A stretch of DNA of 64,000 nucleotides from a virus: IMG/VR virus record IMGVR_UViG_3300047551_003251; one strand, 5' to 3'. How positions within the stretch are numbered: position 1 is the first letter of the stretch; every line of letters starts with the position of its first letter. The notes under the pieces were generated by a model. That model saw only the letters and a program-made list of their open reading frames with translations. It did not search any database and had not been told where the DNA came from. The translations under genes and the position numbers were made by a program. Below, one piece after another: positions 1,901-36,285 of the stretch.

Positions 1901-3583
1901 ATGCCTTCTCCAGATGGAATTCATCCATATGGCCGCGTTGGCATCAACCACGCGCAGCCGGAAGTGGGTATAGACTACCCACTTGTGGGTGTTCCATCGT
2001 CTGATATCGCGCAGCTGCTTGCGGATCTGTGCTTGGATTACGAAGATCCAGCTGACTACAACTCCGCATTAACCGCTTACGAGTTGCCATTCCGAATTGA
2101 ATGGATTGCAGGATTTGGGACTGACCCTGCTACCGGCTCGCCATCTGCCCCCGTAAACAGCGCTGATATCATAATCGTTGACGCAAATAACGATGTCGTA
2201 TTTGATTCGCGCTCTGCGACTATACTGCTGGACCGCGCATGGGGTCCACGCTTATGGATATACGAGTGGCTGTCTGACACCGCACATCTTACGGTTGTGC
2301 GCCACGCAGCGTGGGCACCTGAAGCCACGCCTGTCACTTACTCTTACGCGTTTAATCCGACACATGCGGTACTGCACGCGCGTACCGTACGGCGGCTACC
2401 CAAACGGCTAAAGACAGCGTCAGCATTACTTACGACTTTAACAAATGCACCGTTTGATTTGGCCGCAGAATACAACATGGAGATTGCGGCGGAAACTATT
2501 ACGCGTGGTTCTAGAAACATAACGCGCGTCACATTTAATGCAAACCCAGGCGCGGGGCTTGGCGTATACCCCGACTGCGAAGAAGAGTTGCAGGTTATTA
2601 CCAAAATTAACAACATACCGCCAACAGAAAGTGGTCATTTCTTTATAAGTGCAGATGGTTGTTATTTTGTAAGGCAGCCAGTGCTTGTAATATCCGAAGA
2701 CCCGCGGCAAACCTATCCCAGCGTACTGCTGTATCCTTACAACGAAATAGACGAGTCTTTATTAACTGGACCAGATCCACTTGCTGGTACAACTACCGCA
2801 GCTGTTGGTTGGCCTACAAGTAAAGAATACGCGCACTTATACCTTGGTAATGACTGCGTACCATGCTGCGACTGCGCGGATTATGTAGACGCGGCGCAGT
2901 TTATCATTCGAGAAGCCGGTGAATTTAAGAAGCTGGCTAAAGAAGCGCACGCCGCTGCGCGCGAGTACGAAGCTGTTAGAACCCGATTTATAAACGATAA
3001 GGATTGTCGCACGCGTTTCCCAATTCGCGTTGCGCTGCAGCCGCAAGCTTGCCCGACCATTGATGTTTTAGTGCAGTTCTGTAATCAAACAGATACGTGT
3101 TTAACAGATTTGGTGTTAAACCTGGAGCTCGACGCTAACGGCGGTATCGGCGAGGAGATGGCCGGCTATACACAAGTAAAAGGTGCGCATTTTGGCAATC
3201 CTGGAAACTTAAAACCACTGGTCGAGCGCGCGCAGCTTAACGGCGCGTGGCCTAACTACTCAATGACGTGGGAGTATGTACCGCCGCATGCGTCTGTATA
3301 TTTCCGCGCAAGATTTTCATTCGATAATTGCGGTGGTATTCAGGTCGATCCGCTGGCACCTGGAAGCGAACTTGAGCCGTACGTAATAACTGCAATTGCA
3401 ACGGCAACTGTTAATGGTCAAACTTTGATGCTGCCGCTACGTGAAAACTCAAACGATGAAGTGCAAGAACAGGCATCTGGTTCTGCAGTAGCGGCATTAC
3501 GTTGCCCTGCGACGCAAGAAGACGTAGCGCCTAAAAACTTCTGTGTAATACCTACCAGCTTACCTGACCCAATCGGCGGTTAA
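1901..3583 (+). CDS. Cys-rich virion tail/baseplate-like protein (paralog 1)
   Basis: 560-aa ORF, SD AAAGGA; GAGLG..C and TKINNIPP..G motifs shared with the next three genes; structural role is inferred. Confidence 0.55.
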   Translation: MPSPDGIHPYGRVGINHAQPEVGIDYPLVGVPSSDIAQLLADLCLDYEDPADYNSALTAYELPFRIEWIAGFGTDPATGSPSAPVNSADIIIVDANNDVVFDSRSATILLDRAWGPRLWIYEWLSDTAHLTVVRHAAWAPEATPVTYSYAFNPTHAVLHARTVRRLPKRLKTASALLTTLTNAPFDLAAEYNMEIAAETITRGSRNITRVTFNANPGAGLGVYPDCEEELQVITKINNIPPTESGHFFISADGCYFVRQPVLVISEDPRQTYPSVLLYPYNEIDESLLTGPDPLAGTTTAAVGWPTSKEYAHLYLGNDCVPCCDCADYVDAAQFIIREAGEFKKLAKEAHAAAREYEAVRTRFINDKDCRTRFPIRVALQPQACPTIDVLVQFCNQTDTCLTDLVLNLELDANGGIGEEMAGYTQVKGAHFGNPGNLKPLVERAQLNGAWPNYSMTWEYVPPHASVYFRARFSFDNCGGIQVDPLAPGSELEPYVITAIATATVNGQTLMLPLRENSNDEVQEQASGSAVAALRCPATQEDVAPKNFCVIPTSLPDPIGG

Positions 3584-3597
3584 AGACAAGGGTTGTT

Positions 3598-5202
3598 ATG
3601 AGCGTTCGTACGCGTAATTGGTATGCTGCCCGCGGAACTCAAGCCTATCCGGTTGATGAGAACGCCACCGGTATAAGCGATGAAGGTACATCGCTGCCAC
3701 ACGATATTGTCGTGGACTGCTCATTAAACTGGGATCCAAGTTATGGGCAGTACGCGTTTATCAGTAGCGTAACTGTTACACCAAAGATCGTATCGATTAT
3801 CATCTCTGCGTGTAATAGCACCACAACGGTTACAGGGTTTACGCCGCTCGCTGTTGTAACGACGCCGCAGCCAGTTACCGCATTTACACATTATGCCGTA
3901 GAGGCGTTACAAGCTGGCGTGGCGGGATTTATCGTATTTGGTGACGTAGCCGATACGTATACTGGGCGGTTCAGCACACCTGCCCAAAGTTTACTGCGCC
4001 CAGCGTGCGCCTACCCCGCACACGGCTTCTCGGTGCCGACAGTTAGAAAGTATGGGCTGGATAATGGTTTGAAAGGACTGGTTCAACTTATCGGAGCTGA
4101 CGATATTGAAGTCGTACCTACGCAAGTCACGATCAATAACGTTGAAACAGATGTTATTGCGTTTAGATTACGTGCGTCAACAACGCTTAGAAATCCGCTT
4201 AGAGAATATATCGGCCCGTGCGGCAACAGACCTGAAAGCGAAAACTGTGTTGATGCCGGTATTGAAACCATTAACGAAATCGTCCCAGATGAGTTTGGAA
4301 ACATAAACATTATTTTCCAAGACATGATCGTAGGGCCGTATGGCGAGTCCTGTTCAAGCGAAGCCGCCGGTGTAACGATTGATCAAGAACTGGGGCTTGC
4401 CGATGTCTGTCCTGATAATGACTACGGTAAATTTTCCGGCAGTGCGCGTTGCAGCTTAAACGACTACAGTTTTTCGTCAGAATCATCCAGTTCTGGTTCC
4501 GGTAGCGAATCATCCGTTGGTGAATGCTCACTTCCGCTATCAATCGACTGGGATTACAGCAGCTCGTCACTAGCTGATACCGGGTTTGTTACAAAACTTG
4601 GCAGTTTTGAAAATCAAGAATACGCCGGTAGCCGCGTGTACGTAGCCACCGACAACACCACGCGTAACTTGGCACTTAAACAAGATTGCTTACTTCCAGA
4701 GTTGTACGGTAAAGAGATTTCAGTTGAATTTAGCTTGCCTAGCGATACGTTTCGTAACGCAATGCTGGTGTTTAATTACCGTACCGTGTTATCCGGCGGG
4801 GCGCACGTTGAGTATTTCGGTCTGGAAGCCGACGCGCGGCTTGGGCTGCTTAGTCTAATGCGATTTAATGGAACATCGCTGGTCACGGATTACGCTGTGC
4901 CGCTGTCTAACGGTATAGCAAAAGACCACTGGTACAAACTTAGAGTTAAGGTCGCACAGCAGTCTGAAACTGTTACATGCCTGTATCTTGAAATTACAGG
5001 TGTTACAAACACTAGCTGGCCGGGCGTAGCGTTTACATTCTTAACTAAAAAGTATTACTACGGCGAACATCGTTTTTATGGCATATCTGCCTTACGCACA
5101 GCCGCGCGCTTTGACAATTTCATACTTAAAGACGTAAGCCAAGCTGGCATTTGTACAGGACTTGGTGGGTTGTTTGGACCTATTGGCGGAGCAACGCCAT
5201 GA
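3598..5202 (+). CDS. Tail/baseplate-like protein (paralog 2) with Ser-rich linker and C-terminal beta-sandwich/lectin-like domain
   Basis: ETINEIVPDEFGNINI tail motif; SSESSSSGSGSESS linker; C-terminal HWYKLRVKV...GISA...ARFDNF resembles a ConA/LamG-type fold. Confidence 0.55.
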   Translation: MSVRTRNWYAARGTQAYPVDENATGISDEGTSLPHDIVVDCSLNWDPSYGQYAFISSVTVTPKIVSIIISACNSTTTVTGFTPLAVVTTPQPVTAFTHYAVEALQAGVAGFIVFGDVADTYTGRFSTPAQSLLRPACAYPAHGFSVPTVRKYGLDNGLKGLVQLIGADDIEVVPTQVTINNVETDVIAFRLRASTTLRNPLREYIGPCGNRPESENCVDAGIETINEIVPDEFGNINIIFQDMIVGPYGESCSSEAAGVTIDQELGLADVCPDNDYGKFSGSARCSLNDYSFSSESSSSGSGSESSVGECSLPLSIDWDYSSSSLADTGFVTKLGSFENQEYAGSRVYVATDNTTRNLALKQDCLLPELYGKEISVEFSLPSDTFRNAMLVFNYRTVLSGGAHVEYFGLEADARLGLLSLMRFNGTSLVTDYAVPLSNGIAKDHWYKLRVKVAQQSETVTCLYLEITGVTNTSWPGVAFTFLTKKYYYGEHRFYGISALRTAARFDNFILKDVSQAGICTGLGGLFGPIGGATP

Positions 5203-5948
5203 GCGAACGCGTTCAAAACTTTGAATTTAGAGATGACTACAGAAGTTCGCACTACCCGTTTTCTGATAGTGCCGGCCGCATCAGTAATGAATACCGGCGC
5301 GTGATTGCGGCGGGTACGTTTATTGATGCACTGCTTTATCCTATCGGTGCTACCTCCAACGTGTACCTGTCGCAAATCGACATTACCGCACAGTTTGCCA
5401 CATTTAGTCTTGCAGACCTGCGGCGCCGTGTGCTGGCTACCGGAGTTGTCGATTTGCTGGACGCGCCTGACATAATCTATTTTTACGACAACTACTCAAG
5501 ACCAGCGGGTACGATTGTAGCGGCACCGCTGTCGCTATCGCAGTTTAGCGCCTGGGAACTTGGAACGCATACGTTCAGCAGCGTGCAAACTGAGTTTGTA
5601 GCTTCTTGCCTTAAAATTCCAGTCAATAACGGCGTACAAGGTTTTACGACAGAAACCGAAGAATTGTTTGCCGGCGATGTGTATCTACTGGGTGAAAACG
5701 GCGTCACGCTCACCGCAGCTGGCGACGTAATTACGGTACACGCAGTCGGCGATCCTCTCTATCGCAGAGTTGAATGCTTACCAACTGCTAAGTTTGTTCC
5801 TCCAAGTTTCTTTTTGACAATCAACGGTTGCCCGCCTGATCAGTATGGCAACTTCAACATTACCGTAGGCGACAACATTACGGCAGACACGATTGTGCGC
5901 GTGGTACAAACCGACAGCGGTTTAGAGATAAGAGCGATAGGTACATAA
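5199..5948 (+). CDS. Tail/baseplate-like protein (paralog 3)
   Basis: Start moved to ATG 5199 (ATGA overlap with the previous stop); HYPF, LTINGCPPDQYGNFNI motifs. Confidence 0.55.
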   Translation: MSERVQNFEFRDDYRSSHYPFSDSAGRISNEYRRVIAAGTFIDALLYPIGATSNVYLSQIDITAQFATFSLADLRRRVLATGVVDLLDAPDIIYFYDNYSRPAGTIVAAPLSLSQFSAWELGTHTFSSVQTEFVASCLKIPVNNGVQGFTTETEELFAGDVYLLGENGVTLTAAGDVITVHAVGDPLYRRVECLPTAKFVPPSFFLTINGCPPDQYGNFNITVGDNITADTIVRVVQTDSGLEIRAIGT

Positions 5949-6901
5949 TGTCTAGAGCACCAGCATACAACGAAAATCAATACCGCGATTATCCGTTTAT
6001 AACGGTAGTGCAGCCTATTGATAGCAACTCCAGCGCCAGTGCTTTGTTTGAGCATCTACCTTCAGCAGCTATTGTAGATTTTGGCTGCATCATGGACTTA
6101 GACGCCAATTTTAGTGAGGGCGATTATGTATACCTCGATAAGATTGAACGCGACGGCGCAATTTTAACTTTCTACTTTGGCTGCACTTCCAATACAGAAC
6201 AGTTAATCTTTGCCCGCGACACAGCAACTGCAGCAGAATGGGAAATACAGTGGGTTGAATCTGAAATAGTTGAAGGCCCGTCTTACGACAGCCAGATTGA
6301 AGATAACGTTGAAGTGCCTGTATGCCGGACTGAAGGCGCGTGGCGTGGCTTTTTAGTAACTGGCAAATTTGATGAGCTACTGACGCTCATAGCTGACGGC
6401 GATACGTTAACATTTGCAACCGGACTGTGGCAAATTGAGCCGTCAAAAATTCAAAACATTTACAAGCACTATGTGCGCAGCGTAACTGTACTAAATCGAA
6501 AGCGCACGCTGGTTACAGATGAAACTGTGAACTACGGTGTTGTTGTTTACGACGCGTGCTTAAACGGTAACTTGAAGTTTAGAGAAGGTTACAACTGCTC
6601 TATTTTACAGAACGACGCAGCTAATCAGCTAATATTTAAAGGTGCAGTCGGCGCGGGTCAAGGAGAGCCGTGCGCAGAGGTGTCGTTAAGTATTGGAGAA
6701 GTGCCACCTGATGACGGTTCGTATCTAACTGGCGGGCCACGTTGCGGCGACGTACTTAAAACCATTAACGGGAAGGGTGGTAAAAGCATAACTATAAAAG
6801 GCGGACCTGGTTTTACCGTAGAAGCAGACCCAGAGACGTCAACGTTAACAATAACACGTGACCTATCGCAATTTACAAAATGCGGGTCTAACGTAACATG
6901 A
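5948..6901 (+). CDS. Tail/baseplate-like protein (paralog 4)
   Basis: DYPF, LPSAAIVDF, GAGQGEPC, LKTINGK motifs; coupled starts and stops. Confidence 0.55.
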   Translation: MSRAPAYNENQYRDYPFITVVQPIDSNSSASALFEHLPSAAIVDFGCIMDLDANFSEGDYVYLDKIERDGAILTFYFGCTSNTEQLIFARDTATAAEWEIQWVESEIVEGPSYDSQIEDNVEVPVCRTEGAWRGFLVTGKFDELLTLIADGDTLTFATGLWQIEPSKIQNIYKHYVRSVTVLNRKRTLVTDETVNYGVVVYDACLNGNLKFREGYNCSILQNDAANQLIFKGAVGAGQGEPCAEVSLSIGEVPPDDGSYLTGGPRCGDVLKTINGKGGKSITIKGGPGFTVEADPETSTLTITRDLSQFTKCGSNVT

Positions 6902-7854
6902 GCGATCTATTCTTCCCTTCAATTCGTTGCGATCTTCCGTCGCTGCCCGCGCCGGACTTTGATTTCGTATCTTCTTGTGATATTTCACCACCGCCGGGTC
7001 CAATCATGGATTGCCCGGTAATCGATATTGAAATTGATCCACCGGTCGTGGCTTTTCCGTGTCCGCCTCTAAATTTTTCAGGTGGTATTGGTTACGGAGG
7101 TGGATTCGGGTTTACTATCGGCACCGTTAGTAATAGCGAAGATTGCGGCGTTGACGTTTCAATTTCAATCACAATTCCTGATCCTGCAGAACCGCCGTGC
7201 CCCGATATCAATATCGATGGCACAATCGGCTACGGTAACGATTTTGGTTTCGCTATCACAGCACTGAGCGCGGGATCTGGCAGCTGCGCAATTGATTTTA
7301 GCCTTGATATTACCATCCCAGAGCCGCCAGAACCGCCGCTGCCGCCTTGCCCCGAATTCAACGTTAACACGAATTTGGTTGTAAGCAATACGCCCGGATT
7401 TGGGATGACGATAGTAAATACTGGAAGTCTTTCTTCTTGCGTATTTGACGTCAACGTCGATGTTAGTATTCCGTCGTTTCAGTGTCCTGAAATCAATCTT
7501 AACACCAGTCTGGCGGGCTGCGGTACATTTACCGGAAATATAGTAACGGACCCTGAGGCGTGTACGTTTGACATAGATTTGTTTATTGATTTAAGTGAAT
7601 GTTCGCCGGGCGGTGACATATTCAATTTTTACTTCTACTCGTTTTTCTATGACTTCTGGTACAGCTTCTGGTACACGTTCTGGTATGCCTGGTGGGATTC
7701 TTATGGCGATAGCGGCGGAGACTCTGGCTGCGCGTGTATAAAGTGCGGCTCGGCGATGGACACAAGCACTGTGTACTGTATCGATGTTGGTGGCGCCACT
7801 TGGTACTTTAATGACTGCGGGCAGTTTGTTGGCGTTCTGGTTCCAACCGCTTAA
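6898..7854 (+). CDS. Pro/Cys-rich protein with four ~45-aa internal repeats and an aromatic tract (putative fibre/virion protein)
   Basis: Repeats begin FPCPPLN/PPCPDIN/PPCPEFN/FQCPEIN; tract FNFYFYSFFYDFWYSFWYTFWYAWW. Confidence 0.55.
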   Translation: MSDLFFPSIRCDLPSLPAPDFDFVSSCDISPPPGPIMDCPVIDIEIDPPVVAFPCPPLNFSGGIGYGGGFGFTIGTVSNSEDCGVDVSISITIPDPAEPPCPDINIDGTIGYGNDFGFAITALSAGSGSCAIDFSLDITIPEPPEPPLPPCPEFNVNTNLVVSNTPGFGMTIVNTGSLSSCVFDVNVDVSIPSFQCPEINLNTSLAGCGTFTGNIVTDPEACTFDIDLFIDLSECSPGGDIFNFYFYSFFYDFWYSFWYTFWYAWWDSYGDSGGDSGCACIKCGSAMDTSTVYCIDVGGATWYFNDCGQFVGVLVPTA

Positions 7855-7874
7855 ACCGCTTTAAAGGTAGTGTT

Positions 7875-8801
7875 TTGTATATGTTTTCAAGCAGTAGCGC
7901 TAGTTTTTCAAAAAACTTTGTTGTGCTGCACTCGGCGGCTGAAGCTGCTGCGTTTTTTCCAAATGCAAAAAAAATATTACCTGTTACAGAAATTTACCCG
8001 GCTAACACACCGGCGCAGCTTACTACGTCTTTAATTAAAAACAAAAAAATGGACGTAGGAAAACTAGCGTTTCCTATTCAATCACTTGGAGCTTACGATT
8101 GGTACTCTCCGCATTTAGCCGCACCGCCAGAATGCGTTACGTTGAACACGAGCTGCAGTGTGGACGCGTGTCCGCCCGGTTGCTTTACCTCAAACGTGTC
8201 GTATGTACTGGATGAACAAGGAGGTCAAACTGCGCCTGCGTGGGATGTGCAATTTACAGTTTCACCGGCCGCTCCTTGCCCTGGTGATGTTGTAACAATA
8301 TTAATCAATCCAATGTCGCCACTGGACGCGCCGGGCACTGGAGATCCCGCGCCGCAACTTTCATTTGCTACAAACATCGGCACCGTTTCAATAACAAATT
8401 TAACGCCGTGGGATCCTGCTATAGATGCAGTGTTATTAGGTAGCAAAGATTATTTTGGTCCAGGCGGAACAATATTACAGTGGAACTACATTGTTGATCC
8501 GTCTAATCGCTATATTACGTCAATTGAATTTAACTTGCTACTTCCGGAAACTGCTTGTACCGGTAACGGTTTTATTGAAATATCAATGCCACACAGCCAA
8601 GCAGAAACTTGGATTTTAAGACTTGAATGTTGTCCTAGCTCCGGCTCCGTAATTTTGATTCCAGAATGGCGAAGTTTTGTAAGTGACTGTCCGCCAGAAA
8701 GTTGCATGTCAATTGGTGGTAACGGATGGTTGTCGCCATTTACAGATAGCGCACCGTCATGCGAAAGTGGAAGCCTTTCGTTACCGGAAGACCCAATATA
8801 A
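7875..8801 (+). CDS. Pro/Cys-rich hypothetical protein, likely virion-associated
   Basis: 308-aa ORF within the structural run; start uncertain (TTG 7875 or ATG 7881). Confidence 0.5.
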   Translation: MYMFSSSSASFSKNFVVLHSAAEAAAFFPNAKKILPVTEIYPANTPAQLTTSLIKNKKMDVGKLAFPIQSLGAYDWYSPHLAAPPECVTLNTSCSVDACPPGCFTSNVSYVLDEQGGQTAPAWDVQFTVSPAAPCPGDVVTILINPMSPLDAPGTGDPAPQLSFATNIGTVSITNLTPWDPAIDAVLLGSKDYFGPGGTILQWNYIVDPSNRYITSIEFNLLLPETACTGNGFIEISMPHSQAETWILRLECCPSSGSVILIPEWRSFVSDCPPESCMSIGGNGWLSPFTDSAPSCESGSLSLPEDPI

Positions 8802-8818
8802 CAATTTGAATCTGGACT

Positions 8819-9844
8819 ATGCAAAAGTTCATACTGAAACATCGACGATCCCCCGGCGATATCGTTGTCATGACTGCGTTGCCACGGGATATCGCATTAA
8901 CTTATCCAGGTAAGTATCAAATTGGTGTCGATACTAGCTTTAGCGGGCTGTGGGATAATAACCCTTACTTAGTTCGCTTGGACAAAAAAGACAAAACAGT
9001 AAAAGTCATTGATCTGGATTACGGCGAGGGTATTCGAAAACAGCGCCAAGAGACTGTTCATTTCTTGACTTACTTCCATAAAGATTTCACCAAGAAAACT
9101 GGTATACCAGTAAGCCTGCAGAAACCTTACGGCGATATCCATCTAACTACACAAGAGCGCGACGCGTATAGACTCAAAAGCCGCTACTGGGTAATCAATG
9201 CGGGCGGCAAGTCCGACGCGACGGTTAAAGTTTGGTGGACGAAGTATTTTCAAGAAACAGTATTTTTATTGAAACGACACGGTATTGAAGTCGTACAAGT
9301 AGGTGCTACAGATAAAGATCACTGGCATCCAAAGCTGACTGATGTGGTTAGCCTGGTGGGGCGTACTAACCTACGACAGCTCGCTGCAGTTATTTCAAAT
9401 GCAGATGGTGTTATTTCTGGCGTTACCGCTGTTATGCATATGGCTGCCGCGCTGCAGCGTCCCTGCGTGGTGGTCAGCGGCGGGCGGGAAGCTTGGTACT
9501 GGGAGGCATATGTACGTGAGAATGCTGGTTTAGGCGGTCTTGATGTGGCGGAAAAGCTAGCTGTCCCGCATCGTTTTTTACATACCATTGGGCTACTGGA
9601 TTGCTGCAAACACTGCGGCTGCTGGAAAAATAAAGTAGTCCCAAACGGTAAAGATAAATTGATATGCCTTAAGCCTGTAAAAGGTCTGACTCAAACTGTA
9701 CCGGCGTGCATGGATATGATTACACCCGAGATGGTCGAGCAGGCTGTGCTAAGTTATTATTACGACGGCACACTGCCGGAAATCGCAGAGACTGCGTTAA
9801 GTCGTGATACTAAAGCACTGTGGGAAGCAAATGAGTACGTATGA
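8819..9844 (+). CDS. GT9-family (ADP-heptose-type) glycosyltransferase with C-terminal Cys cluster
   Basis: SPGDIVVMTA, NNPY, VQVG, LVGRTNLRQLAAVISNADGVISGVTAVMHMAAALQRPCVVV typical of GT9; C-terminal CCKHCGCW...C...CMDMITPEMV. Confidence 0.85.
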   Translation: MQKFILKHRRSPGDIVVMTALPRDIALTYPGKYQIGVDTSFSGLWDNNPYLVRLDKKDKTVKVIDLDYGEGIRKQRQETVHFLTYFHKDFTKKTGIPVSLQKPYGDIHLTTQERDAYRLKSRYWVINAGGKSDATVKVWWTKYFQETVFLLKRHGIEVVQVGATDKDHWHPKLTDVVSLVGRTNLRQLAAVISNADGVISGVTAVMHMAAALQRPCVVVSGGREAWYWEAYVRENAGLGGLDVAEKLAVPHRFLHTIGLLDCCKHCGCWKNKVVPNGKDKLICLKPVKGLTQTVPACMDMITPEMVEQAVLSYYYDGTLPEIAETALSRDTKALWEANEYV

Positions 9845-10967
9845 AGATCGAAGTTATCCACCTATAGGCAAGGAACTTAAATACCAGCGCGGCGATGGTG
9901 CTGTTGTCACGCTTAAGATTGACCAGCCTGTTACGCGTCCTGCCGCCGCTGTATCTTTTAACGAATTGCCTAAAGTACAAGTAATGCCAGACGTTGCGGA
10001 CCTGCCTAATCCTCAGCCGGAGCCTATAGCGCCGGTACGGCAGTTTGTTAATACACCGATGACCGCATTCTTATGTTTCCGTGCGAATAGCACGCTTGCG
10101 CAGCAAAAGGCTTGCTTGGATTCGTTTTTAACAACTACGCAACCGGACCAACTTGAAGTTCGCGTTGTAATGATTGGCGCGGACAACGAAACCAGAAAGC
10201 TTGTACAAGATTACATCAAAGCCGGATTTGTTGCGCAGGCATATGTTTTTTCGCAAAACACAGACAAGTTTGCGGCGATGGCGCGCGTGTGGCACGATAA
10301 CGCTTGCCGGATTACCAGCACATGGGTGCTATGGGCGGACGACTGTGTTATGGCTGACGTGCAACCTGACTGGTTTACAACAACGCTGCAGTTAATAACA
10401 ACTGGCAAAAATACGCATACTGCACATTTGTTTGGCAGTAAGTATGGTCAAACTGTAAGTCCTGACTTTAGAGACTGGATTAAAGCAGCGCCGTGGTATA
10501 AAAAGCGACCCCTACGTAACCGTAACGGACAGTCAGATGCGACGGGAACACTGACGTACTTTGTGCAATCTCAATGTTTCATTGTAAGTAACGAAGCTAT
10601 TCAAGCTGCAAATCTGCCAGATGCGCGCGCAAACCAGCAGTGCGGTGCCGTAATTATCGGCGAGCAGATTTACCAGCAAGGATTTAGTGTTCGGCAATTC
10701 AACAGCGACGGTAAAATCATTCGTAACCTGGAGAAGCCGGCTATTTCTGGCAGCTGGCCTGTGCCGGGGTCCAAGAATTATGCACCGGGTTATTGCGGAG
10801 ACTGGTATCGGCTGGTGGAAGGTCCACCAAGTATTCCTGTTGAAGTAATCGAAAAACCGATGCCTGAAGTGCAGCGCCAAGAAGTTCAACCAGTAGACTC
10901 AAAATACAAAAAGGTCGGTAAATGGACAGTGTTCAACCTACCGCCGCTGCCCGCAACATCCACTTAA
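9831..10967 (+). CDS. GT2/GT-A-like protein, degenerate paralog of 55372..56082
   Basis: Start moved to ATG 9831; DKFAAMARVWHD..ITSTWVLWADD and PWYKKRPLR align with KYPMMRKMFYD..ITTPYVMWFDDD and PWYTNRPLR. Confidence 0.6.
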   Translation: MSTYEDRSYPPIGKELKYQRGDGAVVTLKIDQPVTRPAAAVSFNELPKVQVMPDVADLPNPQPEPIAPVRQFVNTPMTAFLCFRANSTLAQQKACLDSFLTTTQPDQLEVRVVMIGADNETRKLVQDYIKAGFVAQAYVFSQNTDKFAAMARVWHDNACRITSTWVLWADDCVMADVQPDWFTTTLQLITTGKNTHTAHLFGSKYGQTVSPDFRDWIKAAPWYKKRPLRNRNGQSDATGTLTYFVQSQCFIVSNEAIQAANLPDARANQQCGAVIIGEQIYQQGFSVRQFNSDGKIIRNLEKPAISGSWPVPGSKNYAPGYCGDWYRLVEGPPSIPVEVIEKPMPEVQRQEVQPVDSKYKKVGKWTVFNLPPLPATST

Positions 10968-11242
10968 CCAAGGAATTTATTTACGTTTGTTTGCAGGATC
11001 CTGCTTTTTTTAATGCAGTTCCAGTGTTTATGGATTTAGCAGACACGGCAGCTGCAACAGTAACCTACGCCGCCGACAATGATATACCGCCGCGGCAGGC
11101 GCTATGGGGCTGCGTTGTAGCGATTTACAAAAGGATTAGCGAACTACCAGCAGCAGCCTGGGAGCCGCAATTAACTGCGTACATACAGGCGCGTACAGGC
11201 GGTAAACCAATTAAACTAGCTATTCCAAGGCTATTTTCGTAA
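10922..11242 (+). CDS. Hypothetical protein
   Basis: 106-aa ORF in operon orientation. Confidence 0.5.
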   Translation: MDSVQPTAAARNIHLTKEFIYVCLQDPAFFNAVPVFMDLADTAAATVTYAADNDIPPRQALWGCVVAIYKRISELPAAAWEPQLTAYIQARTGGKPIKLAIPRLFS

Positions 11243-11273
11243 GCTGGATAAACCTCTATTCAAGGAAGAAAGC

Positions 11274-12272
11274 ATGCCAGCAGTTGAACGCGGATTCACA
11301 ATAACCCACACAACCAGCCACTACATTTATGGCCGTTATGACGGTGTGCGGGTACGTATCAGTGTGGACGAGGCGTGTAATGTAACGCCTAAGATATTTG
11401 CTTACCGCATGTTGCCTGTGGATCCTAATACAGGCGCAGCAGAAGGGCATTTTAGCCACATCTGCTCATCTGTAGATTTAGCCGAGTACCCAGAAGATGC
11501 CCCTGTACCCGGTGCCTCGCCGGCGTGGTTTCGCTTAAACTACGTAGATGTAATTTTGCGGTCATGGGCGGAAGCTTTGGACTTTATTGACGTTGTATAC
11601 GAGGATGTCCGCAGTTTGAAAGATAGCTTGGACAACATGGATGAAATAGTCGGTACAACGCAAATTACAATTGGTGCAATCTGCCCTGTAGATAGTTCAT
11701 CGTCCAGCGTATCCAGCAGCAGTAGCTCATCCAGCAGCCAAGTGTATGAGTCTTTTGTAGTAACTGCTGCACCGGCTGAATCTCGCGGCTTTGGCGCTGG
11801 TGTAGAATGGGTAGATGCGGCAGTTACATTACCCGGTGGCGCTTTAAGTCAGGTATTACTTATGTACGGCTTTGATTTTACTGAAATTCCAGCTGATGCC
11901 GTTATCCGTGGGATTATCGTATCGCCTAGTTTACGCTGGGCTGACAACGAAGCATCGTTATCCAGCGCAAGCGCCAGTGCATCTGCAACAGATTACTGCC
12001 CTGAGCTGATTTACGCGACCGTACACCACCCAGAACAAGGTATGGGCACTGATCCACTGTCTTCAGTTTGCGTAAGCGGACCAGCGTTTGAAAACTACGA
12101 GTACGGCGCAGATGATGAACTTTGGGGTAAATCCTGGACTGTAGGTGATGTACATCGCGGCGAGTTCGGTATTGCGCTAGTTGTACGTGCAGATACGCTG
12201 CCGGGTGAAATACCGATTGAAGCAAGTTTAGAGAACAGCACAATTACGATTCACTACGACATTCCGGTATGA
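11274..12272 (+). CDS. Hypothetical virion-associated protein with two Ser-rich tracts
   Basis: SD AAGGAAG; SSSSSVSSSSSSSSS (11694-11738) and SLSSASASASA (11955-11987). Confidence 0.6.
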   Translation: MPAVERGFTITHTTSHYIYGRYDGVRVRISVDEACNVTPKIFAYRMLPVDPNTGAAEGHFSHICSSVDLAEYPEDAPVPGASPAWFRLNYVDVILRSWAEALDFIDVVYEDVRSLKDSLDNMDEIVGTTQITIGAICPVDSSSSSVSSSSSSSSSQVYESFVVTAAPAESRGFGAGVEWVDAAVTLPGGALSQVLLMYGFDFTEIPADAVIRGIIVSPSLRWADNEASLSSASASASATDYCPELIYATVHHPEQGMGTDPLSSVCVSGPAFENYEYGADDELWGKSWTVGDVHRGEFGIALVVRADTLPGEIPIEASLENSTITIHYDIPV

Positions 12273-12589: not shown

Positions 12590-13096
12590 TTAACTCAACT
12601 GCTGAATTTTGTGCGTTTCCAAATAAGCTATGGCCTGCTGCAAGCTGGTGCTGTTGTCTTTGAAATGCCCAAGCCCCTTGTTGCAACTGGCGCATAAAAC
12701 GCCGCGAATGTGGCCGCGCGCATGGCAATGATCTAAGTGTGGCTTGTTTTTAGAATCAAACTTAACCGCACAGATTTCGCAGCAGGGTTGGCTGCAGTAC
12801 TGCTCGTACTCCTCTAAGCTGATCCCAAATTTAGTTTTCGCGTGCCTTCTCCGTCTGTCTCGTGATAGTTTTTCATAATTTTTATGGTAGTACGCTTTCT
12901 GATATTCATTCCATTTCTTGCTGTTTTTCCTTTGCCATTCTTGAGTGCATTGAATCTGGCATTGTTTGCAGAAGCTACTCGCACCATTTTTATGACTAGA
13001 GTTCCGATGAAACTCAGTTTTTAGTAGCGTTCTTTTACACCTAGAACATGTATGTTCGCTTGTTGTCGCTGCCTCGCTAGTTTTGATTTTGGTCAT
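12590..13096 (-). CDS. Free-standing HNH endonuclease, recombination endonuclease VII family
   Basis: CSRC...CKQC N-terminus; CEIC...HLDHCHARGHIRGVLCASCNKGLGHFKD; start moved to ATG 13096 after GGGA. Confidence 0.85.
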   Translation of the reverse strand: MTKIKTSEAATTSEHTCSRCKRTLLKTEFHRNSSHKNGASSFCKQCQIQCTQEWQRKNSKKWNEYQKAYYHKNYEKLSRDRRRRHAKTKFGISLEEYEQYCSQPCCEICAVKFDSKNKPHLDHCHARGHIRGVLCASCNKGLGHFKDNSTSLQQAIAYLETHKIQQLS

Positions 13097-13200
13097 AACA
13101 ATCCCTTGCGTGTAAAACATTTTGCTGCGTATGGCAATCCTAACAAACAAAACAACTATAAAGAAGCTGTCAAACATGGTGCTAATTTATTGAAAAAAAC

Positions 13201-23905: not shown

Positions 23906-26570
23906 GGCACTGTCCTTACTGACCGATTTACGTTACTTCCATGTCCTACCGGCATTAGGTGTGTCAATTCCGACCACCACCTTACCTATTATGTTAAAGT
24001 GTCCGCTCTGTCAAAGCAACACTTTATGGGTCACAGATAACGCCGGTTTATGGGGTGAATGGCTCTACTGCATGAGCTGCAGCTCTGCAGGCGATTTACT
24101 TGAGTGGTCTGCTGGCGTGCTTAAACAACCGCTGGAAGAATGTATTGCCAAGTTTATAAAGCTTGGCATCCTACGGAAGGACATTGATGTAACAGCTCAA
24201 TTAGCCGCGTATCAGGCACTTTGGCCGGTTGTACGTAAAACTGCCACATCTCTTATTCAGTTATCGCGCCGCCAACTGGAAAGTCCGCCTAATGGAGATT
24301 ACAAGCCGCTGCTGAACTTTATTAATACGCGCTGGGCTGAACCCGATTACATCCAAAGAATAAGTAAATTTTTTGGTTTATTGTCGATGGAGCAGCTTAA
24401 GCAGCCGCAAATAGCACCCAAGGTGGCAGATACGCTGGTTATTCCTACTTACGATTTACCGGGACGTTACGCAGGTTTACTTCTCTTAACGCTACACGAA
24501 TCCGAGCCGCCGGTATTAAGTTATCGCAGCTTTCCTAAACTGGCTGGGCTGGTTAAATACCACAAATGCGCGGGTGTTACGCTGCTGCCGCAAGCTATAG
24601 AGACCAGAAAGCATGACAAATTACGGCAGCCAGAATTGATCGTTTACTGCGATACCGTAGACGCTACACGTGCTTATTTACGCTGGCTGCGCGGTAGCAG
24701 TGAAGCTTTGCCGATGGTAATTCCTGTACAACAGTCGCTGCAAGCAACAAAAACGGTATGGCAGTATTTACCGCCAACACGCTTGGTCTTTGCGGGAGCG
24801 TTTGAAAATACGATTGGGTACGCATCTCGTTCGTCTGGTGATATTGCTGTAATGGATCGCTGCCCGTTTGGCGGCATGCGCAATATGCTGCATTACGTAC
24901 AGCAGATTAAAGATGAAGCAATACCATGGCAACAAGTAGTAATTAACAAGCTGGTTGAAACTCCTGCGGTGCAGCGCACAGACGTATTCATGAAAATGAA
25001 CATTGCACCTGCCAGCCGAGAAGCGTTTATAAATCAAGCGCCTGTTGAACTGCGACAGCAAATTACAGCGCCGCTATCAGAAACAAACTGGCGAACATTT
25101 CCATTTCAACACCGAACTGTAGTTGAAACAGCAAGCGGCTGGTGGCTTAAAAGCAACAAGCCGATTTCGGCTGGTATTATTCGAATAGATCGTATTGTTT
25201 CATTTGCAAAAGCGCCTATTACAAACTACGGAGTGCGCGTAAGCGGACGCGTGCTCTTTAAAGGCGTAATCTACCCGTTTGAAACTACAATCAAAAAGAT
25301 TAACGCCCGCGGGCTATTCAAATTTATCGCCACGTACTTATTGGAAGAGCACGGGTGTTTTGGGTTTTGGTTTCGTAAAGAGTGGAATGCGCGTTCTTTT
25401 GATTTAGCCCTAGCCGCTTACAAGCCGCAGCTGGTTAAAAGTTTGCCGGAACTTGGCTGGAACACCGCAGAACAAAAGTTTGCCTACAACAACTTTGTGA
25501 TTGAAAGCGACGGTACAGTTAATAACAACTGGATGTACAACAGCAACAACCGAACGGAATTCACTCCGACTTACGACATTCCGCGGCCTACAAACCAATT
25601 CCCCAGTGAACTAATACCGCCGCTGGAGAAGACCGATATCAACTCCCGCGCTAACTGGATGCTGGCGGCTGCTGTGCTGCACAACATAATAGCGCCATAT
25701 GCGGGCAGGCCAATGCAAAGTATCGTGGTGGCAGCCCGGTCTACTGTGCGTAAAAAGTTCAGCACAATGCTGCAGAGTGCTGCTTTTCTTGGCTGCGGCT
25801 CCGCTTGTTTAACTGACTGGGGCTGGAAGATTATGCGCGCGCGGCTGGCAGCGGCGGAAAAGCATAACTTTCCAATTAATACGATGTACTGCACGCACAA
25901 AATGCGGCGGGAACTTAAAACAAATCCGATTGCATCAAAACTGATTATTGCGGCGTCACCTGCAATCTCCAGCACAGACTACCAGATAGTTGTTCCAGAG
26001 CCTGTCGGGTATCACGTAAACAATTGGGCGCAAACCTTGAAGCATATGTTGCCGTACGTATTGCAATTTATGCTGCAGAATAGAATAGCGCCAATCAACT
26101 TTAGTAACGACGTGTCGTCAACTTACGTCATCTTGGAAAAATGGCTACAGAACATAGGCGCAAGCACGCAAGGGTTACACGCAGCCATGGAACTGCGAAA
26201 TGCGATGATAACGCCAGAGTATGCAATGCTTACGTGTATCTACGAACCGCGGATTACCAATCACATTTGCAACTACGCAATGCGAATGGACCAGCTTCGT
26301 GGTTCGTATTTATTTGAGCACATGTCTAAACCATATGTTGATGCCATTCCTAAACTAAACGTATTTACATACGCCGACCATATCTTTATTGCAAAACAGA
26401 ACTTTGAACAGTTCAGGCGCAATTACATCGGGTACATCGCAAAGACCACTATGGATAATGGCAGCAATGTAACTAAAGAAATGGCTAAATACGAAAACGA
26501 CTACTACGTGTTCAACGAAGCAAATTGGATTCGTATAGGTAAAGTTTTTTCAGAGTTGTACGAAGACTAG
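23904..26570 (+). CDS. 888-aa protein with N-terminal Zn finger; possibly a derived primase/helicase-like protein
   Basis: CPLC...CMSC; ...PELGW... segment reminiscent of DUF927; no intact TOPRIM or Walker motifs seen. Confidence 0.55.
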   Translation: MALSLLTDLRYFHVLPALGVSIPTTTLPIMLKCPLCQSNTLWVTDNAGLWGEWLYCMSCSSAGDLLEWSAGVLKQPLEECIAKFIKLGILRKDIDVTAQLAAYQALWPVVRKTATSLIQLSRRQLESPPNGDYKPLLNFINTRWAEPDYIQRISKFFGLLSMEQLKQPQIAPKVADTLVIPTYDLPGRYAGLLLLTLHESEPPVLSYRSFPKLAGLVKYHKCAGVTLLPQAIETRKHDKLRQPELIVYCDTVDATRAYLRWLRGSSEALPMVIPVQQSLQATKTVWQYLPPTRLVFAGAFENTIGYASRSSGDIAVMDRCPFGGMRNMLHYVQQIKDEAIPWQQVVINKLVETPAVQRTDVFMKMNIAPASREAFINQAPVELRQQITAPLSETNWRTFPFQHRTVVETASGWWLKSNKPISAGIIRIDRIVSFAKAPITNYGVRVSGRVLFKGVIYPFETTIKKINARGLFKFIATYLLEEHGCFGFWFRKEWNARSFDLALAAYKPQLVKSLPELGWNTAEQKFAYNNFVIESDGTVNNNWMYNSNNRTEFTPTYDIPRPTNQFPSELIPPLEKTDINSRANWMLAAAVLHNIIAPYAGRPMQSIVVAARSTVRKKFSTMLQSAAFLGCGSACLTDWGWKIMRARLAAAEKHNFPINTMYCTHKMRRELKTNPIASKLIIAASPAISSTDYQIVVPEPVGYHVNNWAQTLKHMLPYVLQFMLQNRIAPINFSNDVSSTYVILEKWLQNIGASTQGLHAAMELRNAMITPEYAMLTCIYEPRITNHICNYAMRMDQLRGSYLFEHMSKPYVDAIPKLNVFTYADHIFIAKQNFEQFRRNYIGYIAKTTMDNGSNVTKEMAKYENDYYVFNEANWIRIGKVFSELYED

Positions 26571-28453
26571 GGTCTATCCATAAACCTAGAATCGGATTCC
26601 CAGCCGTAATCGCGGCTACCTGCGGCTTGCTCTACCGCAGTACTAATCTTGGCAACTTTGGCCGCTTCAGCAAAATTAGGCCAAGCATTCCGCGCATGCC
26701 AAAGCGCTGCGGCACCGATGTTAACAGCTTGTGCAAAATCGTCCGTAAGCATTGGATTGCGTGTGATTACGTAAATATCGCCGGCTGCTCTTGATGTAGT
26801 TTTTTCTTCAATCAACGCTAAGAAGTCTCGCAATAAACCACTGTGACTGCGGTCATCAATATCTTGCTGGTAGAATCGAAGTAGTCCAGCTTTGATTGCC
26901 TGCATGGTGTACAGCAGCGAACGTGTTTTGTCCAACCGATAGTGGTCCCGGTTATGCATTGGCGTTGCAGGTACAAACTTGATTAAATTTGAGGCCGCAG
27001 CACGTACATACTCAATAGCCATAATGCGTGTCAGATCAAAACCAGCTTGCACCATTACAGTTTCGCGCACCACGCCGGCGCCGGTATAATCATGCGCTAC
27101 GAGGTCGCACTTAAACTTTTTAAGCCAATACAAGCATTCTTTGGCTTCTTTCATGTGATCCTGTGATGTGACTAGTCGTTTACCCCAAAGTACTTCAATC
27201 TTGTTGTTGTTTGTAATACCCAGCAGCGCAAGCACAGTAAACGATACACCGTCAGCGCCACCGCCACCCCAGTCGATCGCTAATACCTTTAACGGCAATT
27301 CCTTTAACCGCTTAAACACAGCAGGCGCGGGATCGTCAGGTTTGTTTTTCCACTCTAAATTAGCAGCGGCACGTAACTCCGTTTCAGTTATGAGTTTCTG
27401 TCCAGAGTCGACCGCCTCGCCCATAATTTCGTTGTAAAAGATATGCGGCGGTTCATTTTGCTGCGTGCGTAAAATTTCAGCCCACTTGTCATAACGCGCG
27501 TAATGCAACGGCAATATGATTTGCGGTAGATGATAACCAGCAAAGTCGTAACGCAGTTCTGGGTGTCTGTGCCACCAGTGCCCATACCGCGGATTAATAG
27601 GCAGACGGCACTTGTAACACACAACACCAGGACGCTGCTCGCTAATGTCGTCGCGCAGCGGTCCGACCATGCCATCCAAGTGATATTCAATTGCAGGGAT
27701 ATTATCAAAGCCGCAAGCCGTACAAGGTATTACCCACTCGGCGCGCGAAGAGCGATGCCATAAGCCTTCAATTGGATTATCTAATGTTTTAGGCGTACCC
27801 GTGTAAGAACGTAACTCGTACTTACTGTGGGACATCGCAGCATCAATAATCGGCAGATGGTCAGGATCCATGTCCTGCACCTCGTCATAGCGGTTGTAGT
27901 CTGAAGACACACCGCGCGTTCTGGATGCGTCCAGCAACGCAAACGAAAATAACATTACCGATCCATTGCGAAAGGAACGTTGCAAAACGGACTGCTCGCA
28001 GCGGGTATCCACTAACAATGATCTGATAGGAGAAGTAGCAACAAACGGCCTTACATAGTTGTTTGAAAAACGTCGAATCTGTTCGTACAGCGGCGTAATA
28101 AAGAACGTACGAAAGTAAGGCACAACGTTAGATAGTAAAATACCGTGCGAAGATATGGACGTGGATTTGGATACCTGGCGTCCCGTACGGAATAGTGTTC
28201 TTTTTGACATCGTTGTTTTAAACAACGGCGACATTGGAAAGTGTTCTTTAAGGGTGTAAGACTGTCCGTTCAACGTAAACATCAGCGGGAGCAGTGGTTC
28301 TAGTGTTGGAATCCTCCCGGCGGCTATCCAATCGTTAATGCGTCGAATGCGCTCTACCGCATTTGAATCAGACGCGTGCGGATTTTGAATCGCTTCGCTG
28401 ACTAACGTCGTAATTTGTTCGTTTTGCGGTTTTGTCGAAATGATTGTTGTCAT
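26567..28453 (-). CDS. terL: Terminase large subunit, GpA-like
   Basis: RTGRQVSKST (Walker A), YDEVQD (Walker B), YTGTP, CTAC/CYKC Zn, LAIDWGG nuclease, DDFAQA. Confidence 0.9.
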   Translation of the reverse strand: MTTIISTKPQNEQITTLVSEAIQNPHASDSNAVERIRRINDWIAAGRIPTLEPLLPLMFTLNGQSYTLKEHFPMSPLFKTTMSKRTLFRTGRQVSKSTSISSHGILLSNVVPYFRTFFITPLYEQIRRFSNNYVRPFVATSPIRSLLVDTRCEQSVLQRSFRNGSVMLFSFALLDASRTRGVSSDYNRYDEVQDMDPDHLPIIDAAMSHSKYELRSYTGTPKTLDNPIEGLWHRSSRAEWVIPCTACGFDNIPAIEYHLDGMVGPLRDDISEQRPGVVCYKCRLPINPRYGHWWHRHPELRYDFAGYHLPQIILPLHYARYDKWAEILRTQQNEPPHIFYNEIMGEAVDSGQKLITETELRAAANLEWKNKPDDPAPAVFKRLKELPLKVLAIDWGGGGADGVSFTVLALLGITNNNKIEVLWGKRLVTSQDHMKEAKECLYWLKKFKCDLVAHDYTGAGVVRETVMVQAGFDLTRIMAIEYVRAAASNLIKFVPATPMHNRDHYRLDKTRSLLYTMQAIKAGLLRFYQQDIDDRSHSGLLRDFLALIEEKTTSRAAGDIYVITRNPMLTDDFAQAVNIGAAALWHARNAWPNFAEAAKVAKISTAVEQAAGSRDYGWESDSRFMDRP

Positions 28454-34788: not shown

Positions 34789-36285
34789 ATGATTCATGTA
34801 ATCGGCGACTTGTTAATTGATTACACTATCCACGGCGCGGCAACGCGCATTTCTCCTGAAGCGCCTACGCCGGTTGTGCTTGTAAGCGGCGAGCAGCAAA
34901 CGCTTGGTGGTGCTGGTAACGTTTACAAGAATTGTCGTTCTTTAAATCAGAACGCAGTTTTGTATGCGGCTGTTGGGCACAGTAAGGTAGATAACGAGCC
35001 GACCACGTCTAAGTGGTGGCAGACTGTTCCAGCCCTGACGTGGCTGAACAAACAGTTTGGTGAGTTTTCGGATAGTGGTATTCAATTATTTCAAGACAAC
35101 GATTACGTAACTCCGCTTAAGACTAGAATTGTTGTTGAAGGACAACAGCTTCTACGTGTTGATCGGGAAAACTCTGACATACCTGTATCAGACGAGACCG
35201 CAAATCAATTACTGCAGGCGCTGGCAGATAAAATGCAGTGCTGCAGTGTTGTGGTTATTTCTGATTATGGAAAAGGGCTTTTCAATAAAGAACGAGCGCG
35301 CACGGTTATAGAGTTAGCTAATAAGTATTCGGTGCCGATACTTGTTGACGCCAAGCCAGCTCAGCTTAAAAACTGGGCTGGCGCTACACTCTGTACTCCA
35401 AATATTGATGAGGCAATTGCTTACGGCCGCGAAGCAGGTGTATTGTCGTCAAATAAACGGTACGCCGCTAAAGACGAAAAAATTGAAGCAGCAATGCTTG
35501 GCGCTTTTGCAATGGTTGATAACTTGCGGCTGCGTTATGTCGTGCTGACTATGGGTGATGCAGGCGCAGCGCTTATCAAACCTCTTGTTGAACAAAACCA
35601 ACTTCCACTTGTTTACCCGGCTAAAGCACAACGTGTTTATGATGTCACCGGTGCCGGTGACTCTTTCATGGCTGCTCTAGCTGTCGGTATTCAAAACAAA
35701 TGGAATTATGAAACCGCGGTGGAGCGGGCAGTTTATGCCGGTTCTTTAGCGGTGCAGCAGCACGGTGTTGTATGTGTCACAGAAGTTGACTGGGATAACG
35801 CCTGGCGTAGTGGCGCAGGGTTTGAAGGTAAACTTGTACCGCCCGATGAGCTGATGCGTTTTGTGTCTATTCAACGGGCCGCCGGTAAAAAAATTGCACT
35901 GGCTAACGGTTGCTTTGATGTGTTGCACGCGGGGCATATTCACATGCTAAAAACGGCAGCTGCAGAACTTAATTCAGTACTGCTGGTAGCCGTGGATTCT
36001 GACGAGAACGTATCACGACTTAAAGGTCCGGGTCGTCCGATGACGCCTGAACTGCTGCGGCAGACGCAGGTTGCTACGCTTCCATTTGTGGATCGTGTAA
36101 CTGTGTTTAACGGCAGCGTGCTGGATTTAATTAAGAAGGTCAATCCTGACTATTTGGTTAAGGGCGGTGATTACGCTGACAAAGAAGTTGTTGGCGCTGA
36201 CTACATGGAGAGTATTCAAGGCAAGGTGGTTATTACGTCTTCTGTGCCGGGGCTAAGCACCACTAGATGGGCGAGTAACGACTAA
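34789..36285 (+). CDS. hldE: Bifunctional D-glycero-beta-D-manno-heptose-7-phosphate kinase / heptose-1-phosphate adenylyltransferase
   Basis: VIGDLLIDY..G...RISPEAPTPV, GGAGNV, SDYGKG, DVTGAGD; NGCFDVLHAGH, KGGDY, STT. Confidence 0.92.
   Translation: MIHVIGDLLIDYTIHGAATRISPEAPTPVVLVSGEQQTLGGAGNVYKNCRSLNQNAVLYAAVGHSKVDNEPTTSKWWQTVPALTWLNKQFGEFSDSGIQLFQDNDYVTPLKTRIVVEGQQLLRVDRENSDIPVSDETANQLLQALADKMQCCSVVVISDYGKGLFNKERARTVIELANKYSVPILVDAKPAQLKNWAGATLCTPNIDEAIAYGREAGVLSSNKRYAAKDEKIEAAMLGAFAMVDNLRLRYVVLTMGDAGAALIKPLVEQNQLPLVYPAKAQRVYDVTGAGDSFMAALAVGIQNKWNYETAVERAVYAGSLAVQQHGVVCVTEVDWDNAWRSGAGFEGKLVPPDELMRFVSIQRAAGKKIALANGCFDVLHAGHIHMLKTAAAELNSVLLVAVDSDENVSRLKGPGRPMTPELLRQTQVATLPFVDRVTVFNGSVLDLIKKVNPDYLVKGGDYADKEVVGADYMESIQGKVVITSSVPGLSTTRWASND

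Follow-up and report, generated by a model that had tools for sequence, protein, structure and literature searches.

A phage GT9–GT-A glycosyltransferase cassette as a candidate system for O-glycosylation of serine-rich tail proteins

Introduction

To our knowledge, a few autotransporter adhesins of proteobacteria are the only proteins known to be O-heptosylated, and mycobacteriophages are the only phages in which phage-encoded enzymes have been shown to glycosylate the virion. Here we analyze a gene of glycosyltransferase family GT9, the heptosyltransferase family, located at positions 8819–9844 of a 64,000-nucleotide stretch of viral DNA (IMG/VR record IMGVR_UViG_3300047551_003251), together with the GT-A glycosyltransferase gene that overlaps its end. 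We refer to the whole 64,000-nucleotide stretch as the window; coordinates are window positions, on the plus strand unless stated otherwise.

Among the closest described systems, TibC and AAH are GT9-fold enzymes that heptosylate Ser residues of proteins, and TibC carries an iron finger (C339, C342, C358 and C370) that contributes to dimer formation (PMC4358343). For mycobacteriophages, PMC12619734, citing Freeman et al. 2023, reports that capsid and tail-tube C-termini carry glycans. Heptose also features in a described phage gene cluster for modification of 5-hydroxymethylcytosine (5hmC), in which a T4 beta-GT-like GT-B enzyme lies beside a C5 methyltransferase and 5mYOX (bioRxiv 10.1101/2023.12.21.572611). 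Full-text literature searches returned no paper on a phage GT9 or on virion heptosylation.

We propose that the GT9 and GT-A enzymes act as a cytoplasmic cassette for O-glycosylation, which uses heptose drawn from ADP-heptose and targets Ser-rich parts of tail-distal proteins made by the phage itself, and we put the probability of this reading at roughly one half. An earlier, sequence-only reading of this DNA had already suggested heptosylation of Ser-rich tail proteins. That suggestion survives as the best-supported explanation, through the gene neighborhood of the clade and the Ser tracts, whereas the argument from a TibC-type Cys finger that accompanied it does not. The lines of evidence that support the proposal are a Rosetta-stone fusion of the two enzymes, the conservation of the cassette, its position in the genome, the clustering of Ser tracts around it and the presence of HldE- and GmhB-like genes.

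Results

The GT9 open reading frame (ORF) encodes 341 amino acids and matches PF01075 Glyco_transf_9 with E 2.1e-16 and 60.4 bits against a gathering cut-off of 22, which places it within the family. Its end is overlapped by a GT2-like GT-A glycosyltransferase gene (9831–10967, with its ATG at 9831), recognized by a structure match in the Atlas (template-modelling scores of 0.51/0.74) with GT2 clusters and with viral clusters of GT9+GT2 fusions; the nearest structural clusters include viral GT9+GT2 proteins of 591–685 residues. This fusion recurs among relatives of the window: the GT-A gene follows GT9 in 76 of 82 related loci, and in about 60 of those 76 the two form a single ORF of 610–726 residues, the split form being common to the window's closer relatives. 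A homologue of a third protein, p332, lies downstream of GT9 in 68 of the 82 loci, and GT9, GT-A and p332 are the only conserved core across loci. At least 226 IMG/VR contigs carry a member of the GT9 family; many of these contigs are 180–230 kb long, and several of them show direct terminal repeats and a completeness rating of 100%. Among 5.8 billion proteins searched, 125 GT9 homologues were identified, almost all metagenomic, and no record of the exact GT9 protein sequence was found. Within the GT-A family, the motif WFDDD is present in 59 of 61 sequences, and reads WADDC in the tail-block copy of the window and in its closest relative, L002.

Several proteins around the cassette are unusually rich in serine. 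The four most Ser-rich of the 58 window proteins are p332, p308, p318 and p534, and all lie within 5 kb of GT9. The window has only two Ser/Thr tracts in real genes, one in p534 (4465–4518) and one in p332 (11685–11753), and we regard both proteins as candidate acceptors. p332 (11274–12272) consists of a conserved N-domain of about 135 residues, a 23-residue poly-Ser linker (the tract just given) and a jelly-roll, CBM (carbohydrate-binding module)-like C-domain. Conservation among its homologues is limited to the first ~135 residues, and most orthologues are Ser-tailed, the tail being N-terminal in some lineages and C-terminal in others. Searches for similar folds with the p332 model returned only a generic jelly-roll for the C-domain and no match for the N-domain; a complex prediction of GT9 with p332 residues 1–170 scored 0.00, which, run without controls, is evidence neither way. 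p534 (3598–5202), a conserved tail-distal protein, contains 9.6% Ser against a window median of 5.7%, and tracts occur in 10 of its 37 orthologues.

The remaining two Ser-rich proteins occupy the slot directly ahead of GT9, which is hypervariable across loci. p308 (7875–8801), directly upstream of GT9, is a variable Ser/Pro-rich protein with no family match whose Ser content of 11.7% is the second highest of the 58. p318 (6898–7854), a variable Cys/Pro/Ser-rich repeat protein with relatives in 8 loci only, contains 9.7% Ser, 5.7% Cys and 10.4% Pro. Within it, a Cys-Pro module (CP..N...G.GYG..FGF.I) is repeated about four times, and its C-terminal stretch, FYSFFYDFWYSFWYTFWYAWW, is extremely aromatic-rich; p318 as a whole matches no known family. 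In the complete relative G002 (203,910 bp), with which the window is collinear, the p318 slot holds mucin-like, Ser-rich proteins of 667, 830 and 203 residues, in which SSSS-type repeats extend over hundreds of residues and which lie immediately ahead of the GT9-GT-A fusion. Ser/Thr-rich tracts occur in 6 of the 214 genes of G002, with 3 of the 8 genes around GT9 bearing them compared to 3 of the 206 elsewhere (p 7e-4). Counted over 65 dereplicated loci, tracts are found in 35 of 185 genes located −5 to −2 kb from GT9 and in 21 of 218 genes located at +2 to +3 kb, which is the p332 slot; farther downstream, between +4 and +10 kb, the figure is 11 of 493. The clustering around GT9 has a Fisher p of 2e-11, a value that overstates independence because the loci are related to one another.

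Four of five complete relatives encode Baseplate_J (above cut-off) 14–19 kb upstream of the cassette on the same strand, with a sheath-like ORF of 945 residues about 35 kb upstream. These features indicate that the cassette closes the baseplate/fiber block of a contractile-tailed phage. No convincing match to GPW_gp25 was obtained. Upstream of the hypervariable slot, about 40 loci retain p560, p534, p265 and p317. The earlier placement of GT9 next to tail genes therefore holds by synteny in relatives, although the immediate neighbors match no family: PHROGs and Pfam scans of the window neighbors and of ten G002 upstream proteins found no informative structural family. From the sheath and baseplate genes of relatives, and with the tail placement given by synteny, the source appears to be an uncultured contractile-tailed phage with a genome of about 200 kb.

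The GT9 enzyme itself appears to be active. Its predicted structure is a GT-B fold (predicted local distance difference test, pLDDT, 95), and a fold search with the model returned the GT9 structures 3tov, WaaF, TibC and WaaC as top matches. In alignment A1, comprising 36 homologues, the invariant residues are G13-D14, G129-G130-K131, K137, W139, H207, E224, C262, C268 and C297. The counterpart of G13-D14 in WaaF is the catalytic GD pair, and K137-x-W139 aligns with K192-H-W of WaaC, in which the Lys is a donor-phosphate contact; given these matches, the protein looks catalytically competent. Its donor would presumably be ADP-heptose, a reading supported indirectly by the HldE- and GmhB-like genes described below. 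The same invariant residues bear on the idea that GT9 has a scaffolding or structural role without catalysis, comparable to the GT9-fold PnsB1 subunit of the chloroplast NADH dehydrogenase-like complex. We consider this very improbable, as the GD pair, K137 and H207 (the nucleotide-sugar contacts) and E224 are invariant in 36 diverse homologues and donor-synthesis genes co-occur with GT9.

A more serious alternative, which we nonetheless judge unlikely, has GT9 and GT-A remodelling a glycan of the host envelope, such as the inner core of lipopolysaccharide (LPS) or a lipid-linked oligosaccharide, to block superinfection or alter receptors. The closest sequence relatives of known function are indeed LPS heptosyltransferases. 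A profile of the GT9 family matches WaaF (2.8e-10) and WaaC (1.5e-5) in the PDB, with TibC absent from the matches, and the NCBIfam matches of the protein are all to LPS heptosyltransferase models, including those for RfaQ, WaaC and WaaF, with E ~1e-9 and only the C-lobe aligned. A compact Cys cluster of the kind described below is typical of cellular GT9s, and the donor that the phage would boost is the donor of LPS core synthesis. The scores, however, are only 36.2–39.2 bits against cut-offs of 134.6–467 (TIGR02193, TIGR02195, TIGR02201 and NF007742); we rejected orthology with WaaC, WaaF or WaaQ, as the protein falls far under every equivalog cut-off. Profile offsets further indicate that the N-lobe, which binds the acceptor, falls short of the N-lobes in the WaaC, WaaF and WaaQ models by about 60 residues, which argues against the standard acceptor, Kdo2-lipid A (Kdo, 3-deoxy-D-manno-octulosonic acid), bound by the N-lobe of WaaC. 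Seroconversion genes are typically not located at the end of a tail-fiber block, and here the gene is fixed at that position and joined to GT-A in a clade of large phages, several of which have terminal repeats. Host envelope remodelling would also leave the linkage to the Ser-tailed p332 unexplained.

Near the C-terminus, GT9 contains a Cys4 cluster (C262/C263, C268, C283 and C297) followed by MITPEMV and a C-terminal helix (9602–9736, translating to CCKHCGCWKNKVVPNGKDKLICLKPVKGLTQTVPACMDMITPEMV). C262, C268 and C297 are invariant in alignment A1, C263 and C283 are at least 90% conserved and C266 is not conserved, so the cluster is not a product of chance; the region is modelled with pLDDT 89–96. 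The sequence-only reading had noticed this motif, and the cluster it described is real and conserved, ending at 9736 rather than at 9723. It had also taken the motif as a pointer to TibC and AAH, and this step does not stand. Cellular GT9s from a verrucomicrobial genome (L005, L006 and L008) carry a compact CxxC-x4-C-x5..9-C followed by (M/L)xxI(S/T)PExV at the equivalent site, and the cluster with I(T/S)PE.V is present in 5 of 12 GT9s sampled across Verrucomicrobiota. The motif, common as it is in ordinary cellular GT9s, thus gives no pointer to TibC or AAH. It appears to be a widespread GT9 feature of which the phage and TibC versions are both expanded forms, the phage spacing being wider than the compact CxxC-x4-C-x5-C of cellular enzymes.

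Direct comparisons with the bacterial autotransporter heptosyltransferase (BAHT) family lead in the same direction. The curated model TIGR04414 gave no match to the window GT9 at E<=0.01 and none to the GT9s of four other complete relatives, and the G002 orthologue reached 14.9 bits against a cut-off of 200. Residues 1–323 of the GT9 model align with TibC residues 96–394, from which it follows that the phage enzyme is without the flattened N-terminal beta-barrel of TibC (residues 1–97), and the DSSP string of the model has no long hairpin comparable to the beta-hairpin thumb, which together with a dodecameric ring characterizes the BAHTs. When the 80-residue Cys-finger segment was searched against the PDB with phmmer, only chance matches appeared, TibC not among them. 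The structural comparison with TibC that had been suggested as a check places the GT9 model no nearer to TibC than to WaaF or 3tov. On these comparisons, the enzyme is neither a BAHT nor an orthologue of WaaC, WaaF or WaaQ, and belongs to a separate phage-borne GT9 clade.

Two further genes of the window point to donor supply. An HldE-like bifunctional heptose-7-phosphate kinase/heptose-1-phosphate adenylyltransferase is encoded at 34789–36285 (NF008454, E 3.5e-89; also TIGR02198 and TIGR02199). The match is full-length, over residues 2–493, with both domains present (kinase 2–333, adenylyltransferase 360–493), and neither the GAGD nor the HxGH motif varies among six phage copies. At 299.6 bits against NF008454 it lies below the equivalog cut-off of 521, which suggests a divergent phage version whose heptose specificity is presumed. 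A GmhB-type HAD-IIIA phosphatase is encoded at 57610–58188, with GmhB as its best match (NF006506, E 3.6e-38). It exceeds the cut-off of TIGR01656 (118.7 bits against 84), scores 130.9 and 114.8 bits against the GmhB models NF006506 and TIGR00213 (cut-offs 178 and 149.6), and has the motifs DRDGT, TNQ, GDKxTD and a CPH...CTCRKP zinc loop. Family-model matches thus bear out the earlier identification of a GT9 and, as an HldE-like and a GmhB-type gene that score below the respective equivalog and GmhB cut-offs, of the other two enzymes. The statement that GmhA and HldD are missing from the window was likewise correct, with no SIS (GmhA) or SDR (short-chain dehydrogenase/reductase; HldD) domain among the window ORFs scanned. 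A dispersed ADP-heptose pathway is therefore present to the extent that the window holds HldE- and GmhB-like genes, but these are accessory: an HldE-like gene is carried by 11 of 23 near-complete relatives, among them every one of those closest to the window, and a GmhB-like gene by none. We interpret them as accessory donor boosters around a fixed core of GT9, GT-A and p332.

HldE-like genes are also found on at least 538 IMG/VR viral contigs, many of which seem to be fragments of very large viruses, indicating that phage-borne ADP-heptose synthesis reaches well beyond the GT9 clade. A weak GT9-like ORF was present on 6 of 19 other HldE-bearing viral contigs (fragments, 9–80% complete). A single-protein HldE scan gave no match.

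HldE, the GmhB-like gene and a paralogue of GT-A are located among the replication genes of the window, and heptose on 5hmC DNA has been made from a metagenomic phage gene cluster (bioRxiv 10.1101/2023.12.21.572611), which together could suggest that phage DNA is the acceptor, in the form of a heptosylated hydroxymethyl-pyrimidine. The paralogue (55372–56082) keeps the DDD motif, is 27% identical to the tail-block GT-A over 204 residues (E 3e-22) and has a homologue in G002; the earlier remark that a glycosyltransferase sits among DNA-metabolism genes was accurate in this respect. Tet_JBP and C5 methyltransferase genes, however, are present in 0 of 5 complete relatives, a ThyS-family gene is present in only 1 of 23 relatives and scores as a canonical thymidylate synthase, and no Tet_JBP, C5 methyltransferase or ThyS-type gene was seen among the window ORFs scanned. 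GT9 itself lies in the tail block rather than the replication block. With no route to 5hmC or 5-hydroxymethyluracil (5hmU) found in relatives, DNA, which the sequence-only reading had offered as an alternative acceptor, is disfavored, and we consider this explanation highly unlikely.

At the start of the window, a sugar C-methyltransferase-like gene (1–1197, its 5' end cut by the window) matches PF08484 Methyltransf_14 (E 3.3e-28) and class I methyltransferase domains, and is followed by a gene for a TylF-like sugar O-methyltransferase (1187–1807; PF05711 TylF, E 3.1e-19; phrog_8858, glycosyltransferase-associated; phrog_6608, methyltransferase). In the relatives L002 and L109, the C-methyltransferase orthologue comes after a dTDP-glucose 4,6-dehydratase-like gene. 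L109, whose GT9 is 79% identical, has a sugar island within its structural block (3148–12269 of that locus), just upstream of the point at which the window starts and following a protein of 2396 residues. The island encodes a GT4-methyltransferase fusion (577 residues), a GT2 protein with HtrL_YibB (536 residues), a sulfotransferase (272 residues), an O-methyltransferase, a DUF8361 protein and a C-methyltransferase, along with the dTDP-glucose-4,6-dehydratase-like gene (TIGR01181, E 9e-70). Its gene content suggests that methylated, sulfated and deoxy sugars belong to the same pathway.

Such an island is compatible with synthesis of a complex polymer, and the CBM-like C-domain of p332 might bind a glycan rather than carry one. 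The acceptor could then be a protein of the host, a small molecule, or a polysaccharide, free or lipid-linked, that the phage produces for a different purpose, and the Ser-rich neighbors of GT9 would be coincidental. We find this doubtful. No polymerase, flippase or lipid-carrier-type gene was seen among the window ORFs scanned, the conserved core is just GT9, GT-A and p332, and the Ser tails lie at differing ends of p332 orthologues, as expected for a modification site.

The other genes near the cassette are less informative. p560 (1901–3583) is a conserved tail-distal protein found in the same order in 31 related loci and located downstream of Baseplate_J in relatives; it has no Pfam or PHROG match, and a language-model look-up gave only sub-threshold DUF11 leads. 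p265 (5151–5948) and p317 (5948–6901) complete the p560–p317 block, each in 40 related loci, with no Ser/Thr tracts in the former and tracts in 6 loci in the latter. A small ORF, p106 (10922–11242), separates the GT-A gene from p332 and occurs elsewhere only in L002. Directly past the cassette on the minus strand is a gene with an Endonuclease VII domain (12590–13177; PF02945, E 8e-18), which, having a counterpart in 0 of 82 related loci, resembles a mobile homing-type insertion.

The window as a whole is a fragment of a phage genome, with a large terminase on the minus strand (26567–28453) for which only distant relatives were found (23–29% identity). Cultured phages gave no match by blastn with the region or by tblastn with the GT9 protein. 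A family A DNA polymerase at 46299–49601 is fused to a uracil-DNA glycosylase (UDG) domain, an N-terminal domain of that superfamily (PF03167, E 3e-21) preceding the exonuclease and polymerase domains, and the window also encodes SbcCD-like proteins, a helicase and a primase-like protein. A family look-up of the ORF at 56775–57677 gave no usable match. One member of the phage GT9 clade, P0096 (38% identity), is located on an 11.5-kb contig of a Verrucomicrobiales metagenome-assembled genome (L004 / G001:C644), next to unannotated genes and a He_PIG-domain protein. The contig could be a prophage, or a phage contig binned with its host, which would be a hint to the host.

Discussion

In the mechanism that we propose, the cassette would act in the host cytoplasm late in infection. 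GT9 and GT-A would add a short glycan, starting with or containing heptose, to serine hydroxyls in the Ser-rich stretches of p534, p318/p308 and p332, and these proteins would be modified prior to virion assembly. The phage HldE and GmhB would raise the supply of donor, with the first step still carried out by host GmhA. The glycan might then be elaborated by the methyltransferases of the window and, in a close relative, by further transferases, a sulfotransferase and a 4,6-dehydratase. A coat of this kind could serve in shielding or adhesion.

Several points weigh against O-glycosylation of tail proteins. CAZy family GT9 is not confined to heptose specificity. Membership in the BAHT family was tried and rejected, the curated model having failed and the N-terminal beta-barrel being absent. 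The tail-block GT-A, with DDC in place of DDD, may be impaired or have a different metal geometry. The Ser tracts of the window are short (18 and 23 residues) and far less striking than those of G002, and poly-Ser linkers are common in phage fibers, glycosylated or not, so their clustering may reflect fiber genes. As the immediate neighbors match no family, their assignment to the tail is drawn from synteny. On the donor side, HldE is missing from 12 of the 23 relatives, and the GmhB-like gene and gmhA are each found in 0 of 23.

More tentatively, we envision a widespread system in which GT9-GT-A enzymes, found on those 226 or more contigs, for the most part from contractile-tailed phages of ~200 kb, place heptose glycans on mucin-like, Ser-rich fibers and on p332, and constitute a third branch of GT9. 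The glycans would in some lineages also be methylated or sulfated, forming a sugar coat on the receptor-binding apparatus. If this is true, uncultured aquatic phages of a large, widespread clade would decorate their receptor-binding apparatus with heptose-containing glycans, with consequences for host recognition, resistance to proteases and grazers, adhesion to mucus and particles and phage immunogenicity. It would add a third functional branch of GT9, distinct from LPS heptosyltransferases and BAHTs, and could provide compact soluble enzymes for glycosylating Ser-rich peptides.

Set beside the known systems, the proposed activity would work like that of TibC and AAH, yet the phage GT9 lies outside the BAHT family (TIGR04414; TibC PDB 4RAP/4RB4), being without an autotransporter substrate and fused or coupled to a GT-A enzyme. 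It shares with TibC a reduced N-lobe (for TibC, PMC4358343), and its Cys residues occupy the same topological site, just ahead of the C-terminal helix, with similarly long loops, although a Cys cluster at this site is also common in cellular GT9s. Compared to WaaC, WaaF, WaaQ and the uncharacterized GT9 3tov, the Cys finger is ~20 residues longer, the N-lobe is ~60 residues shorter and the gene is phage-borne, within a tail-fiber block. There is a likeness to the DNA hypermodification clusters of Pyle et al. (bioRxiv 10.1101/2023.12.21.572611), which also combine phage GT-A and GT-B enzymes with sugar-nucleotide enzymes and include heptose among their sugars; those clusters, however, lie beside a C5 methyltransferase/5mYOX or ThyS, and their GT-B enzyme is T4 beta-GT-like, not a GT9. 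The mycobacteriophage system, as presented in PMC12619734, is alike in that glycosyltransferases encoded by the phage are proposed to act on terminal extensions of its own virion proteins. The two systems differ in hosts, in glycosyltransferase families and in sugars, and virion glycosylation is experimental in mycobacteriophages and inferred here.

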